The notes under the pieces were generated by a model. The model saw only the letters and a program-made list of their open reading frames with translations. It ran no database searches and was not told the origin of the DNA. Below, piece by piece: positions 14,546-21,452 of a DNA stretch of 64,000 nt. The stretch is from Christensenellales bacterium (lineage in GTDB: Bacteria > Bacillota > Clostridia > Christensenellales > Aristaeellaceae). Where the stretch lies: positions 12,049 through 76,048 of the forward strand of contig JBGUQG010000143.1 in NCBI GenBank assembly GCA_045130815.1, read 5' to 3'. Each line of letters begins with the position of its first letter. Position 1 is the first letter of the stretch. Both the position numbers and the translations under genes were made by a program.

Positions 14546-14583
14546 AAAAACGAGCCGCCCGACGCTTCGGGTGGCTCGTTTTT
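14546..14583. terminator. Bidirectional rho-independent terminator between argD and hsdR
   Basis: AAAAA, stem CGAGCCGCCC, 8-nt loop, stem GGGTGGCTCG, TTTTT. Confidence 0.8.
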
Positions 14584-14585
14584 GC

Positions 14586-17500
14586 TTACGCCCTCGGCCT
14601 CGGGCCGTTCCGCATGTCCCGATATACAATTGCCCCCACAGCCCGCATGATGGCGTTATACTTGGCCTTGTCCTCGAACAGGGACTTATAGGCATTCTGC
14701 ATTTCGGTGTGTTGGGTTTCCGCGTCCATGTAGCTGTCCATGGCGATATCGCTGAACAGCTTGGGCAGCACGCTGTCCATGAAGATCTTAGGGTCGGAGG
14801 ATCGCGCAAGCTTGCCGGCCTTCTCGTCGGCCATCATCGTGCGCACGATGGTTTCGGTTACAACCCGGTCGGCCTCGGTGAAGATGCCCTTGAATTGCTC
14901 GTTGATCTTCTCGATGATCTCATCCAGCGGTTGCTTTTCCTCCTGGCCCAAGGCGCTCCTGGCCCCGGCGGGCTCGTAGACGCCGGGCGTCTGTTCCAAT
15001 TCTATCGCGCCCTCGAAGGTCTTTTGCAGCTTGTAGTATTCCAGCTGCAGCTTACCTTCAAGGTCCAGATCCGTCTTTACGTCCTGAGGCAGCAGACTGA
15101 TCAGGTAGCTGAGGAAGATGTATTCCCTGTGCAGACCAGCGTCGAACATCCGCGCCACCTGGGAGATGTACCCGTACCACTTGATCAGGCTCCGGCACAG
15201 CCTGCGGAACTGATACCGGTCGTCGGGCTTCATCAGGTTGTAGCGGTCCGCCACAGGCTTGAGCGCGCTTCCCATGCGGCCCATGGCCCTTCCATCCTGC
15301 CCGTCGCCCCGTGTGTATTCCCGGATGCACGCCTCGATGTCGTTGTCGGAATAGATGCTGTAGCCGCGCAGCTCCTTCTGTACCTTATACAGCAGGTCGG
15401 CGTTGACCTCCTGGCTGAGCAGGGTCTCCTGATAGAAGGGCTGGAAGGCCTCCTGGATGTCCTCGGCGCTGTTGATGAAATCCAGCACGAAGGTGTCGGT
15501 CTTGCCGGGACAGGTTCGGTTCAGGCGGGACAGCGTCTGCACGGCCTTCACGCCCCGCAGCTTCTTGTCCACGATCATGGTGTGCAAAAGCGGCTCGTCG
15601 AAGCCGGTCTGGTACTTTTCCGCCACGATCAGCACGTGGAAATTGTCATGGAATTCCGCCTTGGTCTGGCTCTCGGCGATGTGGCTGCCATCCCTGCGCA
15701 CGTTCAGCTTCGGCTCGGTGTATTCCTCGCCGCCGTCGACGACGCTGCCGGAGAACGCCACCAGCACGCCCACGTCCCGATAGCCCTTATCCTCGATGTA
15801 TTGCCTGCATGCCTGGCAATAGCGCACCGCCGCCAGGCGCGAGGACGTGATCACCATCATCTTGCCCTGCCCGCCGATCTTGTGCCGGGTGGTGCTCATG
15901 TAGGTCTCCACGATGATCTGCGCCTTCTGGCTGATGTTCCAGGGGTGCAGCGCCTCGAACCGGCGGATCACCTTCGCGGCGCGGCTGCCGGGCACGTCGG
16001 GGTTGTCCTCGATGGTCTTGGCGATCTTGAAGCAGGTGTCATAGGTCATGTAATTCTGCAGCACGTCCAGTATGAACCCTTCCTCGATGGCCTGGCGCAT
16101 GGAATAGACGTGGAACGGGCGGAAGCTGCCGTCCGGCTGCTCCGTGCCGAACAGCTCCAGCGTGGTGCCCTTGGGCGTGGCGGTGAAGGCGAAGAACGAC
16201 AGATTATTGTGCCGTCCGTGCACCAGCATCTCCCGGAGCAGCTTGTCCTCCGGGTCGACCTCGGCCTCCGCCTCCAGCTCCGCGTATTCCCGCAGCGCGT
16301 CCCCGGTGTCGGCCAGCGCGGCCTTCAGCTTCAGCGCGGAAGCGCCGGTCTGGGAGGAGTGGGCCTCGTCCACGATCACGGCGTAGTTTTTCCCCTTTGC
16401 GGCGTCCACCTCCTGATAGATCACCGGGAACTTTTGCAGCGTGGTGACGATGATGCGCACGCCGGCGTTGATGGCGTCCCGCAGGTCGCGGCTGCTCTTG
16501 TCGTCGTCGATGGTCTCCAGCACGCCGTTCATGTGCTCGAACTGGGAAAGCGTGCCCTGCAGCTGCTGGTCCAGCACCCGCCGGTCCGTGACGATGATGA
16601 CGCTGGAGAATATGGCGTTGTTGTCCACATCGTGCAGCGAGGCCAGCCGATAGGCCGTCCAGGCGATGGAGTTGGACTTGCCCGACCCGGCGCTGTGCTG
16701 AATGAGATAGTTATGCCCCGCGCCGTTTGCGCTCACATCGGCCACCAACCTGCGCACCACGTCCAGCTGGTGAAAGCGCGGGAAGATCAGCCGCTTTTTG
16801 CGCGTCACCGTGTCGCCCCGCTTCTCCTCGGTCACCTGCACATGGATGAACTTCTGCAACAGGTCCATCATGCTGTCCTTCTGGAACACGTTTTCCCACA
16901 GGTAGGCGGTGGGATAGCCGTCCGGGTTGGGCGGGTTGCCCTTGCCGCCGTCCCGGCCCGCGCCGGCGCTGCCCTGGTTGAAGGGCAGGAAGAAGGTGTC
17001 CTTCCCCTCAAGCCGGGTGGTCATCCACACGTCGAAGTGGTCCACGGCGAAATAGCCCAGTATGCGCTTGTTGAACTGGAAGCACAGCTCCCGCGGGTCG
17101 CGGTCGAACATCCACTGGCGCTTGGCGTCGTCGGCGTTCTGGCCGGTGTACTGGTTTTTCAGCTCGAAGGCGAACACCGGGATGCCATTCACCGACAGCA
17201 CCACGTCCACGCTCTTGTGGCACTGGGCGCTGTAGAACCACTGGCGGTTGCAGCAGATTTCGTTCGCCGCGTACAGCGCCGCTGCCGTATCGTTCAGCCC
17301 CGATTCCGGCTTGAAATAACACACCCGGAAGGCGATGCCCCGGTGCTTGAAGCCGTGGCGCAGCACCGACACCAGGCCGTCCATGTCGATGGCGTTGTTC
17401 AGCGCCAGCACGAACTTGCCCACGGGGTCGACCGCGTTCGCACCTTCGAACCGCGCCCAGGCCTTGGGCTGGGTGCGCTGAATGAAGCGGATCAGCGTGT

Positions 17501-17624
17501 CCGTGAACACCGCCGCCCGCGGGTCGTAGACGTCCTGGTTGTGGGTATATCCGCCCTCCGGGGAGAGCAGGAAGGCGGTAAGGTCGTCTTCAAAGCGTTT
17601 TTCGGTGGTATCGGTGATGGGCAT
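14586..17624 (-). CDS. hsdR: Type I restriction enzyme R subunit
   Basis: 1012 aa. SF2 helicase motifs (HSAGSGKSNSIAW Walker A, VIVDEAHSSQ DEAH box), an N-terminal nuclease region and a C-terminal domain typical of HsdR. AAGGAG RBS. Confidence 0.93.
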   Translation of the reverse strand: MPITDTTEKRFEDDLTAFLLSPEGGYTHNQDVYDPRAAVFTDTLIRFIQRTQPKAWARFEGANAVDPVGKFVLALNNAIDMDGLVSVLRHGFKHRGIAFRVCYFKPESGLNDTAAALYAANEICCNRQWFYSAQCHKSVDVVLSVNGIPVFAFELKNQYTGQNADDAKRQWMFDRDPRELCFQFNKRILGYFAVDHFDVWMTTRLEGKDTFFLPFNQGSAGAGRDGGKGNPPNPDGYPTAYLWENVFQKDSMMDLLQKFIHVQVTEEKRGDTVTRKKRLIFPRFHQLDVVRRLVADVSANGAGHNYLIQHSAGSGKSNSIAWTAYRLASLHDVDNNAIFSSVIIVTDRRVLDQQLQGTLSQFEHMNGVLETIDDDKSSRDLRDAINAGVRIIVTTLQKFPVIYQEVDAAKGKNYAVIVDEAHSSQTGASALKLKAALADTGDALREYAELEAEAEVDPEDKLLREMLVHGRHNNLSFFAFTATPKGTTLELFGTEQPDGSFRPFHVYSMRQAIEEGFILDVLQNYMTYDTCFKIAKTIEDNPDVPGSRAAKVIRRFEALHPWNISQKAQIIVETYMSTTRHKIGGQGKMMVITSSRLAAVRYCQACRQYIEDKGYRDVGVLVAFSGSVVDGGEEYTEPKLNVRRDGSHIAESQTKAEFHDNFHVLIVAEKYQTGFDEPLLHTMIVDKKLRGVKAVQTLSRLNRTCPGKTDTFVLDFINSAEDIQEAFQPFYQETLLSQEVNADLLYKVQKELRGYSIYSDNDIEACIREYTRGDGQDGRAMGRMGSALKPVADRYNLMKPDDRYQFRRLCRSLIKWYGYISQVARMFDAGLHREYIFLSYLISLLPQDVKTDLDLEGKLQLEYYKLQKTFEGAIELEQTPGVYEPAGARSALGQEEKQPLDEIIEKINEQFKGIFTEADRVVTETIVRTMMADEKAGKLARSSDPKIFMDSVLPKLFSDIAMDSYMDAETQHTEMQNAYKSLFEDKAKYNAIMRAVGAIVYRDMRNGPRPRA

Positions 17625-17636
17625 ATGTTTTCTCCT

Positions 17637-18254
17637 TTATGAATTGCTTTTTTCTGTTAATGAAACGAATTCTTTTTGAGCCATTAGTCCTCTCTGTTCC
17701 CAATCTCCAATAATATCAACAAACTTACAGGTATGGCGTATATTCCTTTCATCATAATATTTTAGGTGAATGCGATCGAAAGTTTTATCAGAGTGTTCTA
17801 TTTGGCATTTATGGAGTATAAACTCCATTCTAAACCTTTGTGCGCTTTTCTCAGGAATGACAAGTGTATACGACTCGTTGTTTGCAAGTTTGTCCTCTTC
17901 TGTCTTGCTTTTAGTGCTTTGAATCTGGGTGAACTTACCAATTTCGAATTCTTTTCTATAAGCATATAGATTAACATCTCGCACAATACGAGGTATTCCA
18001 CAGGTATTTACTACTTCGAGCCATACAGGGATGATAAGAATCGTATCATTGATGTCTAATGTATCATCCTTATAAAATCCCCAGTTTTTTCCGGTAGAAC
18101 GCTCATGTACTATTTTTGCATAAAGGCTTACTTTTCCTTTTGATTGTAATCTTTTTGAATACCATACTGAAAATATGGTTGAGCCGGCACCAATTATAGC
18201 ACCGAGCAATGCGGATGCCGAAGAAATAAATGCAATTGTCAATTGGCTACCCAT
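17637..18254 (-). CDS. Hypothetical membrane-anchored protein (ORF-X) inside the type I R-M operon
   Basis: 205 aa with one N-terminal TM helix (LTIAFISSASALLGAIIGAGSTIFSVW) followed by a soluble domain. Strongly AT-rich. Its own AAGGAG lies within the hsdS 3' end. It starts 1 nt after the hsdS stop and ends 12 nt before the hsdR start. No family motif recognised. Confidence 0.75.
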   Translation of the reverse strand: MGSQLTIAFISSASALLGAIIGAGSTIFSVWYSKRLQSKGKVSLYAKIVHERSTGKNWGFYKDDTLDINDTILIIPVWLEVVNTCGIPRIVRDVNLYAYRKEFEIGKFTQIQSTKSKTEEDKLANNESYTLVIPEKSAQRFRMEFILHKCQIEHSDKTFDRIHLKYYDERNIRHTCKFVDIIGDWEQRGLMAQKEFVSLTEKSNS

Positions 18255-18255
18255 A

Positions 18256-19539
18256 CTATATTGACTCCTTTTTTCCAGTTACATACTCAAATATCAGCGA
18301 CTTTTTATAGGTATCAAGGTCGGTCAAGAGTCTCTGCTTCTTCGCCGTAATTGTATCAATATCCTCTGCCTTTTGATTCAGGTATGCCACGATTTCCCTT
18401 TGTTCGTCCACTGGTGGATAAGGCATTGTGAAATTCAGAATTGTCGTGGAGTTTGTGCTTGCGAGGTGGACGCTTTGGTTGGCAGTTACGTCGAAGTAGT
18501 CCCTACCTACCGTTGAATCCGAAAGATAGCTGACATATTCAGCCAGCAATTTTTCATTGGTTCGCAGGGCAAACACATGGTTTTGATGGAGGCATGGGTT
18601 GATTTCCGCGTGCCATACCGTGCCGCGTCCGAGCTTATCCCGGTCACCGCCTTCGGTCATCAGCAATTCGCCTTCATGCAAGCGATACTTCTCGGCTTCC
18701 TCCTCGGTCACGGCGATTGTGGCAACATCCCGAAGATCGGTATAGAAACCCTGAACATTGGCAACCCGTAAATAAGGATATTCTACCAGCTTTGTGCCAA
18801 CCGGATATACCTTTCCCAGCGTTATACCTGATCTGATCGTCGCAAAGTATTTTAGCTTTGTCACTTGCCAATCACATGGGACCTCACCTATCCAATCAAC
18901 CCTGCTGTCCTTCATGGGGCGATTGGGGCGGATGCCTTTGGTGACAGCCTGCGTGATGACAGCCTGTTTCAGCTTCTTGTATTCCTCTATCGAAGCCCGA
19001 GTCTGCTCAATCACAGCATCAATGCGGGCACATTCAGCGTCAAGAAAATTCGCAATTCTTTCCTGCTCTCTATAGTCAGGAATAGGAACAGCAATACGTT
19101 TCATATCCTGCCAATTTGTTGTCCAAAGATCATCGACTATTCCATGACCCCACTTATAGAATTCATCCGAAAACATAGTGGAATGAAAAAGCCAATTATA
19201 ATACACAGGGTGCATTTCCCGGCGAGGGATCAGGATTGTATTTATCAGCGAAACTGAACCGTCATATTGCGATATGCCACAAGAACCGCGACGGTCTGAA
19301 CGGCTGTTTATGGCAAAATCACCTATACGCACCAACTTTCTATCGTCGTGCGCATCTGTCTTTGCAGCTGTGCTAAGCTGCGGTAGTATGCCTTTCATGG
19401 TTACAGACAATGGAGGGAAATCTCTGTCGCTGACCTTTTCTTTGCGTTCGGTGTACAGGTTTCCAATCCTGCCCACTTCCCACTCCTCCGGTATCTCTCC
19501 AATCCACGCGATCCCGGAATCCTTCATCGCTCGTGCCAT
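18256..19539 (-). CDS. hsdS: Type I restriction-modification specificity subunit
   Basis: 427 aa with two target-recognition halves separated by conserved helical spacers (...RIDAVIEQTRASIEEYKKLKQAVITQAVTKG... and ...TAKKQRLLTDLDTYKKSLIFEYVTGKK). AT-rich. Starts 3 nt after the hsdM stop. Confidence 0.9.
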   Translation of the reverse strand: MARAMKDSGIAWIGEIPEEWEVGRIGNLYTERKEKVSDRDFPPLSVTMKGILPQLSTAAKTDAHDDRKLVRIGDFAINSRSDRRGSCGISQYDGSVSLINTILIPRREMHPVYYNWLFHSTMFSDEFYKWGHGIVDDLWTTNWQDMKRIAVPIPDYREQERIANFLDAECARIDAVIEQTRASIEEYKKLKQAVITQAVTKGIRPNRPMKDSRVDWIGEVPCDWQVTKLKYFATIRSGITLGKVYPVGTKLVEYPYLRVANVQGFYTDLRDVATIAVTEEEAEKYRLHEGELLMTEGGDRDKLGRGTVWHAEINPCLHQNHVFALRTNEKLLAEYVSYLSDSTVGRDYFDVTANQSVHLASTNSTTILNFTMPYPPVDEQREIVAYLNQKAEDIDTITAKKQRLLTDLDTYKKSLIFEYVTGKKESI

Positions 19540-19542
19540 GGT

Positions 19543-21303
19543 TCAGCCCTCCTTATGGAACAGCGCCCGCAGGCTGCCGGAAATCTCCTGCTCCAGCGCC
19601 GTGATGCGCGCCATGATGTCCTCCACCGGCTCCGGGGCCTGATACTCGTAGAAGTAGCGCGTCATGGGGATTTCGTAGCCCACGGTGTCCTTCTTGTGGT
19701 CGATCCAGGCGTCCGGCGCGTAGGGCAGCACCTCCCGGGCAAAGTAGGCCTCCACGTCCTCCGATAGGGGCACGTTCTCGGTATCCCGCAGCTTGCTGTC
19801 CGCCACGGGCTTGCCCTTCTTCAGAACGGGCTTTCCATCCTCGCCCAGCAGCGGGCGCTCCACCGTGATCTTCGTGTAGCCGAAGGCCTGGGTGTCAAAG
19901 ATTTTGCTCTGGCAGTAGACTTTGTCCTTTTCTCCGTATATCGCGCCGTCCTCGAACGCGCCGTAGGCCTGGACGATCAGGCGGCGGCACAGGTCGGTGA
20001 TGTCGTTGCGCTTGGTGCCGATCGACTTGCGCCGGGGCTCATAGCAATGGCTGGCGTCGATCAGCTGCACCTTGCCGGCGCGGTGGGCGGGCTTGTCCTT
20101 GCACAGCACCCAGATATAGGTGGATATGCCGGTGTTCATAAACTGGTCGGTGGACAGCTGCACGATGGCGTCCAGCCAGTCGTTTTCCAGGATGTAGCGG
20201 CGGATCTCGCTGGGGCCGCTGCCCGCGTCGCCGGAGAACAGCGGCGAGCCGTTCTGAATGATCGCCATCCTGCCCTTCGGCGCCAGCTTCGCAAGGCCGT
20301 TCAGCACGAACAGCTGCTGGCCGTCGGAAATCTTCGGCAGGCCCGGCGAGAACCGGCCCAGCTCGCCCTTCGCGGCCTCCGCCTCCACCGCCTTCTGCTC
20401 CCGCTTCCAGTCGATGCCAAAGGGTGGGTTGCTGATGCAGTATTGGAAGGTGTAGCCAGGGAACTGGTCGTCAGACAGGGTGTCGCCGAACCGCATGTTG
20501 TTCGGGTCGCCGCCGCGAATCATCATGTCCGCCTTGGCGATGGCGAAGGTGGAGGGGTTGAACTCCTGGCCGAAGCAGCTGACGGTCATGTCGGCGTTCA
20601 GCTCGTGGATGCGCTCCTCCATGCAGGAGAGCATCTGGCTGGTGCCCATGGTCATGTCGTAGACGGTGACGTTGCCCGCGTGGGTCAGGTCCGCGTCGGA
20701 GAGCAGCAGATCGGTCATCAGATAGATGATGTCCCGGCTGGTGAAGTGGGCCCCGGCTTCCTCGCCGAAGGACTCGGAAAAGCGCCGAACCAGGTCCTCG
20801 AAGATATAGCCGCAGTCCACCGCGCTGATCTTCTCCGGGCCCAGATAGCCCTTGGGAGTGTTGAACTCCTTGATAACCAGGTACAGCGTGTTGCTCTCCA
20901 CCATGCGGCGGATCACCGTGTCGAAGTCGAACTTGGCAAGCACGTCCTGGACGTTGGACGAAAAGCCCGCCAGGTAGTCGCGGAAGTTGGCCTCGATGTT
21001 GTCCGGGTCGGCGAGCAGCCTGTCAAAGGTATATTTGCTGGTGTTGTAGAACTGGTAGCCGGAGGCGCGGGCCAAAAAGCCGTCCACCACCGCCAGGTGC
21101 TTCACCTTCGCGAAGGTGTCCTGCACCGCCTGCCACGTGGGCAACAGGCAGTCGTGAAAGCGCTTCACCACTGTCATCGGCAGGATCACCAGCCCGTATT
21201 CATGGGGCTTGAACGGACCGCGCAGCATGTCCGCCACATTCCAGATCATCGTCGCCTTCTCAGCGATATTCGTGCCGACCGCGCTGATTTTGTCGTTCGC
21301 CAT
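19543..21303 (-). CDS. hsdM: Type I restriction-modification N6-adenine DNA methyltransferase
   Basis: HsdM N-terminal domain (IWNVADMLRGPFKPHEYGLVILP) and catalytic NPPFG motif (ISNPPFGIDW). Start ATG at 21303 with a GGGGAG RBS. The longer track ORF start at 21405 runs into the promoter. Confidence 0.92.
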   Translation of the reverse strand: MANDKISAVGTNIAEKATMIWNVADMLRGPFKPHEYGLVILPMTVVKRFHDCLLPTWQAVQDTFAKVKHLAVVDGFLARASGYQFYNTSKYTFDRLLADPDNIEANFRDYLAGFSSNVQDVLAKFDFDTVIRRMVESNTLYLVIKEFNTPKGYLGPEKISAVDCGYIFEDLVRRFSESFGEEAGAHFTSRDIIYLMTDLLLSDADLTHAGNVTVYDMTMGTSQMLSCMEERIHELNADMTVSCFGQEFNPSTFAIAKADMMIRGGDPNNMRFGDTLSDDQFPGYTFQYCISNPPFGIDWKREQKAVEAEAAKGELGRFSPGLPKISDGQQLFVLNGLAKLAPKGRMAIIQNGSPLFSGDAGSGPSEIRRYILENDWLDAIVQLSTDQFMNTGISTYIWVLCKDKPAHRAGKVQLIDASHCYEPRRKSIGTKRNDITDLCRRLIVQAYGAFEDGAIYGEKDKVYCQSKIFDTQAFGYTKITVERPLLGEDGKPVLKKGKPVADSKLRDTENVPLSEDVEAYFAREVLPYAPDAWIDHKKDTVGYEIPMTRYFYEYQAPEPVEDIMARITALEQEISGSLRALFHKEG

Positions 21304-21340
21304 GTTCAGTCGCTCCCCCGTCTGTACTGTCATTAACAGT

Positions 21341-21369
21341 ATTATAACGGATCGGGCATACCCGGTCAA
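21341..21369 (-). promoter_or_regulatory. Near-consensus sigma-A promoter of the R-M operon (TTGACC, 17-nt spacer, TATAAT)
   Basis: Minus strand: TTGACC (21369-21364), 17-nt spacer, TATAAT (21346-21341), about 38 nt upstream of the hsdM ATG. Confidence 0.65.
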
Positions 21370-21452
21370 GGCCAGCGAGCCGCGGACAGGCGCGTCTGCG
21401 CACATAATATCTGCATCTCCGCAATCTTATGGTAGTCATCCGCGCCAGACTG

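Follow-up and report, generated by a model that had tools for sequence, protein, structure and literature searches.

The question addressed here is what a small, unnamed gene does inside a type I restriction-modification (R-M) operon of a Christensenellales bacterium. The gene, ORF-X (hereafter X), lies between hsdS and hsdR in a 64,000-nucleotide stretch of DNA (the window; GenBank assembly GCA_045130815.1, contig JBGUQG010000143.1, positions 12,049 to 76,048), the slot in which prrC sits in the EcoprrI type IC locus. Our favoured answer, to which we assign a probability of about 0.45, is that X is an embedded accessory defence gene whose product is a membrane effector of the abortive-infection type, with its sensor domain in the cytoplasm. 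The X family is associated with defence genes, and X is, judged from its genomic context, a good candidate for a phage-defence component; its architecture suggests a membrane-acting effector. The gene and its two predicted parts are as follows.

17637..18254, minus strand: ORF-X, 205 amino acids (aa), predicted single-pass membrane anchor plus cytoplasmic beta-sandwich, unnamed family
18159..18242, minus strand: predicted transmembrane (TM) helix of X, residues ~5-32, hydropathy of the best 19-residue segment 1.96, motif G18-x3-G22-x3-S/T26
17655..18137, minus strand: all-beta sandwich of X, residues ~40-200, 13 strands in the AlphaFold2 model, predicted cytoplasmic

X is a real coding gene under purifying selection. 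It has a homologue that is 90% identical (E 9e-119), and the ratio of nonsynonymous to synonymous substitution rates between the two was 0.16, compared to 0.12 for hsdM. An earlier note on this DNA, made from the sequence, had described X as a 205-aa orphan with one N-terminal TM helix, no family signature and no resemblance to PrrC or RloC. Most of this description was borne out: X matched nothing in Pfam, PADLOC, NCBIfam or PHROGs (the best NCBIfam match was a sub-threshold 15 bits) and none of 5027 PADLOC v2 models at E<=1, the PrrC and RloC models giving no hit, and the predicted structure is one helix plus a beta-sandwich. A PDB sequence-profile search with the X family returned 0 matches, and the 112 family members sampled shared no common Pfam family. 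The word orphan had to be dropped. A family profile built from X and 21 close homologues, searched against 1.84 billion representative proteins, recovered 246 clusters (50% identity) at E<=1e-3, of which 161 reached E<=1e-10, and a second, word-indexed homologue search with a broad profile yielded two further proteins.

Family members found by the profile search are nearly all 180-215 aa long, and wherever a sampled member has been given a name, that name is 'hypothetical protein'. X has the features that define the family, namely a length of ~190-215 aa and an N-terminal TM helix with the motif G-x3-[GS]-x3-[ST], followed by the sandwich. Within the sandwich, N83 and Y129 are invariant, and G40, P76, R92, Q110, F159, Y166, W185 and W196 are near-invariant, X itself having F at 196. 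Among genomes, the close subfamily was found in 8 of ~185,000 species representatives, all of them Clostridia (Lacrimispora, Dorea and Oscillospiraceae), and more distant members of the family occur on Enterococcus faecium megaplasmids. Two further members, P0033 and P0111 (P0xxx labels denote X-family proteins), had no match among PADLOC v2 models at E<=0.01; as neither they nor X match any of these models, the PDC models included, the family lies outside that catalogue. In the literature searched, we found no description of the X family, nor of AbiTii with a TM partner. The X family thus appears to be undescribed, within a known kind of niche, that of defence genes embedded in type I R-M operons.

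We then compared the genomic contexts of X homologues in ~24 distinct informative loci (L0xx labels), in which six or seven members came from outside the close subfamily. Type I R-M operons accounted for 10 or 11 of the ~24, with X directly after hsdS and/or directly before hsdR. Beyond the window, at least nine further independent loci carried a homologue at hsdS and/or hsdR, down to 26% identity. The chance of a random gene abutting an hsd gene is ~0.1%, as estimated from general knowledge, and against this estimate the enrichment is extreme. The loci with the 90% identical relative (L001-6) lie at another chromosomal site than the window operon, beside the spoIIIA operon, and further homologues in type I R-M operons were found in L015, L018/L026, L024/L025, L028, L036 and L032. 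In L050-52, where the order is Fic-hsdM-hsdS-X-hsdR, the hsdS-hsdR slot is again occupied by a member, whose identity to X is just 26%. A 23% identical member occurs in L042 in the order hsdR-hsdM-hsdS-AbiTii-X-like, in an unrelated EcoEI-type R-M system that adjoins an LlaJI-type nuclease. The protein P0146 (L040:1-1097) joins a fragment of an HsdS target-recognition domain (blastp 1.5e-7 to the L050 HsdS) to an X-type sandwich that has no TM helix. The L040 locus is decayed, and the C-terminal end of its upstream open reading frame (ORF) looks HsdM-like by eye.

The junctions between hsdS and X are tight, with an overlap or a gap of at most 5 nucleotides (nt) in L015, L018, L025, L028, L036 and L050. 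Between loci, the percent identities of HsdM, HsdR and X were 97/84/90, 59/56/45, 71/65/68 and 42/31/26, respectively, so X tracks hsdM and hsdR. In the family tree, R-M-embedded copies are scattered and a clade of solo copies is nested among them. The tracking of identities and the scatter of embedded copies indicate that the association with this R-M lineage either is ancient or has arisen repeatedly, and does not go back to one chance event. The target-recognition halves of hsdS are mosaic among relatives, with an identity to the window hsdS of 64-87% that varies by half; since hsdS alleles are mosaic independently of X, we rejected the idea that X is part of an hsdS cassette.

The composition of X bears on another explanation, that X is an independent passenger and the hsdS-hsdR junction a hot spot for cargo. 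X would then have a function of its own, in defence (for example DNA-entry exclusion) or otherwise, unlinked to the restriction enzyme. The guanine-plus-cytosine (GC) content of X is 36%, in a window of 63%, and its GC at third codon positions (GC3) is 0.30, compared to 0.905 in hsdM, 0.887 in hsdR and 0.505 in hsdS; the difference from hsdM and hsdR marks foreign DNA. Measured in 15 loci, the GC content of the X gene was 31-42% in 14, whatever that of the host (32-63%), and 49% in the remaining one, L025. As X is AT-rich regardless of its host, it is horizontally mobile DNA of low-GC origin. The slot is also variable, holding three extra genes including ThsB in L025, and ThsB together with a DUF3990 gene in L032. 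A 310-aa AbiJ_NTD4/Abi_C gene (L001:5771-6703, also in L002-L004; PADLOC PDC-S32, 7.5e-88) lies between hsdM and hsdS, where the window has a gap of 3 nt, which shows that cargo can be taken up at either internal junction of this R-M lineage. Solo copies, moreover, ride on elements bearing an integrase or recombinase; in L011, L012, L016 and L017 the element carries an integrase and a serine recombinase. However, X is a near-constant occupant of the slot across HsdR identities from 84% to 31%, and its junctions are tightly coupled, not those of a cassette with its own promoter and terminator. Taken together, we regard an independent passenger as unlikely. Within the window operon, the compositional break sets X plus hsdS (17637-19539) apart from hsdR and hsdM, yet the identity of X follows that of hsdM and hsdR. 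Recent cassette replacement or selection are possible causes of the AT-richness of X in a host of 63% GC.

X homologues also had other defence genes as neighbours. In three distant lineages (L042; L046-49; L039), an X-like gene directly follows a ~207-aa gene encoding AbiTii alone (PADLOC 1e-23 to 8e-27). The pair of L046-49 adjoins a reverse transcriptase and an AAA ATPase. On the E. faecium plasmid NZ_CP142416.1 (L039:6286-7483), the AbiTii gene (208 aa) and the X-like gene (192 aa) overlap, both are annotated as hypothetical, and the pair is flanked by an EcoRI-family methylase/DUF262 and, at its other end, by a type ISP fragment/integrase; nine plasmid records, this one included, carry it. 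In Dorea amylophila (L020:2133-8597; also L030 and L033), X stands last in the order GajA-GajB-478aa-X, with Gabija matches of 8e-238 and 4e-240, and the intervening 478-aa protein had no match in Pfam or PADLOC. TIR genes of the ThsB type share the hsdS-hsdR slot with X in L025 (8048-8623; 1.4e-55) and L032 (6376-6960; 1.5e-52), with no recognisable ThsA. A RhuM/PDC-S05 gene lies downstream of X in L022, and SieB, Fic, IS110 and an MmeI-like enzyme lie near the homologue in L013. The protein P0116, a fusion of DUF4062 to the sandwich, is encoded between a SEFIR/TIR_2 protein and a SNIPE nuclease. With the ThsB genes, this may point to a recurring association of the X family with TIR-type proteins.

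These contexts speak to two points of the earlier note. It had made the absence of R-M or defence genes around homologues its test against a defence role, and such genes were found: the further R-M loci, AbiTii, Gabija, ThsB, RhuM and SieB. Given these recurrent neighbours, the description that suits X best is that of a defence-island or embedded accessory gene. The note had also suggested that X may be coupled to the R-M complex, by analogy with PrrC. That part does not extend to the family, since many close homologues are solo copies outside R-M loci; obligatory coupling is therefore not general for the family.

The structure of X was predicted with AlphaFold2 from 112 family sequences. The model had a predicted local distance difference test score (pLDDT) of 95.5 and a predicted template-modelling score of 0.85, and in it residues 2-38 form one continuous helix. 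A Foldseek search of the model against the PDB gave no match at E<=1e-3 (best 6.6e-3). The best matches were generic Ig-like sandwiches, namely TRAP-beta, a FixG-related protein, PCuAC, ApaG, the TMEM106B luminal domain and archaeal pilins, with template-modelling (TM) scores of ~0.3-0.65, and against BFVD only uncharacterised phage proteins were matched, with TM-scores below 0.4. Because the structural matches are only generic Ig-like ones, the fold class is clear and no function can be transferred. ApaG and TRAP-beta had been candidates for specific relatives in a Foldseek search (2e-4) with a first model from 22 sequences (pLDDT 70), and this was lost with the pLDDT-95 model; as far as the models tell, their likeness to X is one of fold class only.

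The orientation of X in the membrane was predicted from the distribution of charges. In 101 of 105 members, the 15 residues that follow the hydrophobic segment include more lysine and arginine than the part ahead of it (means of 3.3 and 0.44, respectively), and the short N-terminal tail of family members is acidic or neutral. Under the positive-inside rule, this bias predicts an N-out/C-in topology with the sandwich in the cytoplasm. Two unusual architectures agree with a cytoplasmic sandwich: P0116 has a cytosolic DUF4062 domain (1.4e-28) in place of the helix, and P0117 has a signal or TM segment, an ecto segment and a TM segment ahead of the sandwich. A type IV pilin or archaellin-like identity was rejected, the Foldseek matches being weak (8fk7 and 9eq7; E 7e-3 to 8e-2) and the charge pattern contrary in the same 101 of 105 members. 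A signal peptide was ruled out by the absence of a basic N-region and by the long conserved helix.

Conservation of the helix was counted across members only 19-46% identical to X. G18 was present in 100 of 112 members, A/G19 in 86, I21 in 87, G/S22 in 94 and S/T26 in 93, and the mean column entropy of the helix (2.66) compared with that of the domain (2.51) indicates equal conservation. GxxxG and glycine-zipper motifs drive the packing of TM helices, and a GxxxGxxxS face is their classic signature. Because the small-residue face is conserved throughout the family, the helix of X appears to be more than a generic anchor. One longer member, P0107 (344 aa), has a C-terminal extension at ~200-344 with two or three added TM-like helices by eye and no Pfam match, which may be an added membrane-effector module.

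The operon that hosts X in the window contains the following further features.

21341..21369, minus strand: sigma-70-type promoter-like site TTGACC-17-TATAAT, 11 of 12 positions matching, upstream of hsdM
19543..21303, minus strand: hsdM, type I methyltransferase subunit, 586 aa (Pfam N6_Mtase 2.9e-49, HsdM_N 4e-20; PADLOC MTase_I 1.5e-221)
18256..19539, minus strand: hsdS, specificity subunit, 427 aa (Pfam Methylase_S 3.4e-13; PADLOC Specificity_I 1.2e-110)
18265..18270, minus strand: Shine-Dalgarno sequence AAGGAG for X, within the 3' end of hsdS, 10-nt spacer to the ATG at 18254
17632..17637, minus strand: Shine-Dalgarno sequence AAGGAG for hsdR, 7-nt spacer to the ATG at 17624
14586..17624, minus strand: hsdR, restriction/translocase subunit, 1012 aa (Pfam SWI2_SNF2 3.1e-24, ResIII, T1R_D3-like, HSDR_N; TIGR00348 3.7e-51)

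The minus-strand order hsdM-hsdS-X-hsdR, the coordinates and the intergenic gaps of 3, 1 and 12 nt had been given exactly beforehand, and the near-consensus promoter and both AAGGAG sites named then (18270-18265 in the end of hsdS, 17637-17632 at the stop of X) are present. The first base of the hsdR site is also the final base of TAA, the stop codon of X (17639-17637). HsdM, HsdS and HsdR are encoded together (Pfam, PADLOC and NCBIfam), which makes this a type I R-M system. It has the type IC order hsdM-hsdS-hsdR, and the nearest solved relative of its HsdR is that of EcoR124I, through a weak local match (1.4e-10, 53 residues). A longer ORF for hsdM, starting at 21405, is also present; we set the start at 21303 because this ATG gives 586 aa, as in the L001 homologue, to which the window hsdM is 97% identical. 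No convincing terminator was found between the operon genes. With a promoter upstream, no credible terminator, and tight junctions with Shine-Dalgarno sites, co-transcription and coupled translation of hsdM-hsdS-X-hsdR are the natural reading of the sequence.

By eye, the operon is flanked by ArgB- and ArgD-like ORFs on one side and a RidA-like ORF on the other; as these resemble housekeeping genes, the 6.8-kb operon appears to be an insertion among them. Long antisense ORFs of 1023 aa (14571-17642, plus strand) and 429 aa (20047-21336, plus strand) lie opposite hsdR and hsdM, and are artefacts expected of stop-poor, high-GC coding sequence, not genes. Two observations concern hsdR in related loci. 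In one metagenome (L002:8632-11673), hsdR is split into ORFs of 235 and 762 aa, adjoining an intact 90% identical X homologue, and is likely a frameshift or pseudogene. A 1381-aa gene with no Pfam match lies directly 3' of hsdR in L001 (11869-16014) and is absent from the window, where argD follows.

The position of X immediately upstream of hsdR, and its coupling to hsdR, could also fit a regulator of restriction. As an alleviation or establishment factor, X would sequester or delay HsdR and so protect the host chromosome when a mobile operon enters a new cell. The operon does appear to be mobile, with an arg neighbourhood in the window (by eye) and spoIIIA in L001. A regulator would nevertheless leave the AbiTii pairing, the DUF4062 fusion and the solo copies unexplained, and X has no DNA-binding or protease-adaptor signature (Pfam, Foldseek), which makes this role very improbable.

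A further alternative is that X is a non-toxic membrane tether or adaptor, whose sandwich keeps a partner (HsdS or HsdR here, AbiTii elsewhere) on the cytoplasmic side of the membrane, at the entry point of phage DNA, and improves or regulates its activity. Coupled translation on both sides of X suggests stoichiometric co-production, the divergence of X tracks that of hsdM and hsdR, X-like genes pair with a soluble AbiTii protein that has no effector domain, and the Ig-like sandwich is a typical protein-binding fold class. Type I enzymes have, in addition, been reported to be membrane-associated. However, the close subfamily has many solo copies with no partner, the TM helix is missing from the DUF4062 fusion, and a passive anchor would need no family-wide GxxxGxxxS face. 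We therefore consider a tether doubtful as well.

In the favoured reading, an abortive-infection-type effector, X would be co-expressed with the R-M operon of IC-like order hsdM-hsdS-X-hsdR, and its cytoplasmic sandwich would serve as a sensing or partner-binding module. This module might be triggered by a phage product, or by a partner (for example the R-M complex or AbiTii) that changes. Triggered helices would then self-associate through their small-residue face and damage the membrane, providing an abortive-infection-type second line of defence behind restriction. We assign the sensor role to the sandwich and the output role to the N-terminal module because the sandwich is constant whereas the N-terminal module varies (TM helix or DUF4062). 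This split is favoured, too, because the helix has a conserved oligomerisation-type face and the sandwich faces the cytoplasm. The defence activity, the division of roles between sandwich and helix, the membrane damage and the coupling to HsdMSR are thus what we infer for X. In a bolder and improbable extension, the family would be a new modular class of abortive-infection effectors, with a glycine-zipper TM helix and a cytoplasmic Ig-like sensor, guarded by or guarding varied partners. In the window lineage such an effector would fire when phage anti-restriction proteins disable HsdMSR, which is the logic of PrrC with the membrane instead of tRNA as the target, and elsewhere its triggers would be of the AbiTii or TIR type.

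The comparison with characterised systems shows where X departs from them. Like PrrC, X occupies the hsdS-hsdR slot of an hsdM-hsdS-X-hsdR operon and is a second, non-restriction gene co-expressed with a type I enzyme. Unlike PrrC and RloC, X has no sequence match to them (PADLOC at E<=1, Pfam and NCBIfam) and no ABC-ATPase or nuclease domain. It also differs from PrrC in being membrane-anchored (predicted), half the size, and often found outside R-M loci, whereas PrrC is almost exclusively embedded in type I R-M systems (Payne et al. 2024, bioRxiv 10.1101/2024.01.29.577857). Genes located inside type I R-M operons often serve in defence, and the same guilt-by-embedding work reported 145 PDC candidates from such operons, with over half of the embedded genes still unexplained (bioRxiv 10.1101/2024.01.29.577857). 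X resembles the PDC and HEC genes in being an uncharacterised gene nested in a type I R-M operon, and PDC-S32 and PDC-S05 are neighbours of X homologues. In Vibrio cholerae VPI-2, TgvAB are defence genes nested in a type I R-M operon (PMC11411939), but they are GmrSD-like nucleases unrelated to X.

With lactococcal AbiT, the family shares a tight two-gene module, formed in its distant members with an AbiTii-only protein. The partner differs: it is a TM-plus-sandwich protein encoded downstream of AbiTii, not AbiTi, which is RNase-like and 127 aa long (PMC13064643). AbiTii is viewed as an N-terminal domain of the sensor type, and usually occurs in fusion with HEPN effectors (PMC3710099). The combination of an N-terminal TM segment with a small cytoplasmic beta-rich domain also recalls Cap15 (TM helices plus beta-barrel) of the cyclic oligonucleotide-based antiphage signalling system (CBASS) and ThsA (TM plus Macro) of type II Thoeris. 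In effectors of this type, ligand binding drives oligomerisation and membrane disruption. X, however, has one TM helix and not two or more, neither effector appeared among the top Foldseek hits, and the window has neither a CD-NTase nor a TIR gene close to X. Nor does X contain the SIR2/SLOG or Macro domain of a Thoeris effector (Pfam).

Several points weigh against an effector role. The support for the X family consists of sequences, genomic contexts and predicted models, and the context sample is small (~24 loci, with six or seven members beyond the close subfamily). A single TM helix is a weak basis for a pore. The sandwich has neither a catalytic or ligand-binding signature nor an informative structural neighbour (Foldseek against PDB and BFVD, and the PDB profile search). 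No X homologue was found in IMG/VR viral contigs or GenBank phages, so there is no clue from the phage side. Five or six contexts (L007, L009, L019, L021, L027 and L031) have no recognisable defence neighbour. In the window itself, a hidden Markov model made from three AbiTii proteins found no AbiTii-like ORF anywhere, and no ThsB-sized ORF occurs in the 10 kb surrounding the hsd operon; a ThsB model was not run on the remainder of the window.

Type I R-M operons hide second-line defence genes, of which few, namely PrrC, RloC and TgvAB, have been characterised. The embedded gene X is now placed in a defined family that comprises at least 246 clusters and has conserved motifs; its fold is modelled with confidence and its topology predicted, and the family recurs with three kinds of partner, namely the type I slot, AbiTii and TIR-like modules. 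Should X prove active, it would represent a minimal effector or adaptor, tethered to the membrane, in gut Clostridia, and would make it practicable to examine whether a functional connection between restriction enzymes and abortive-infection modules exists beyond the prr paradigm of E. coli.

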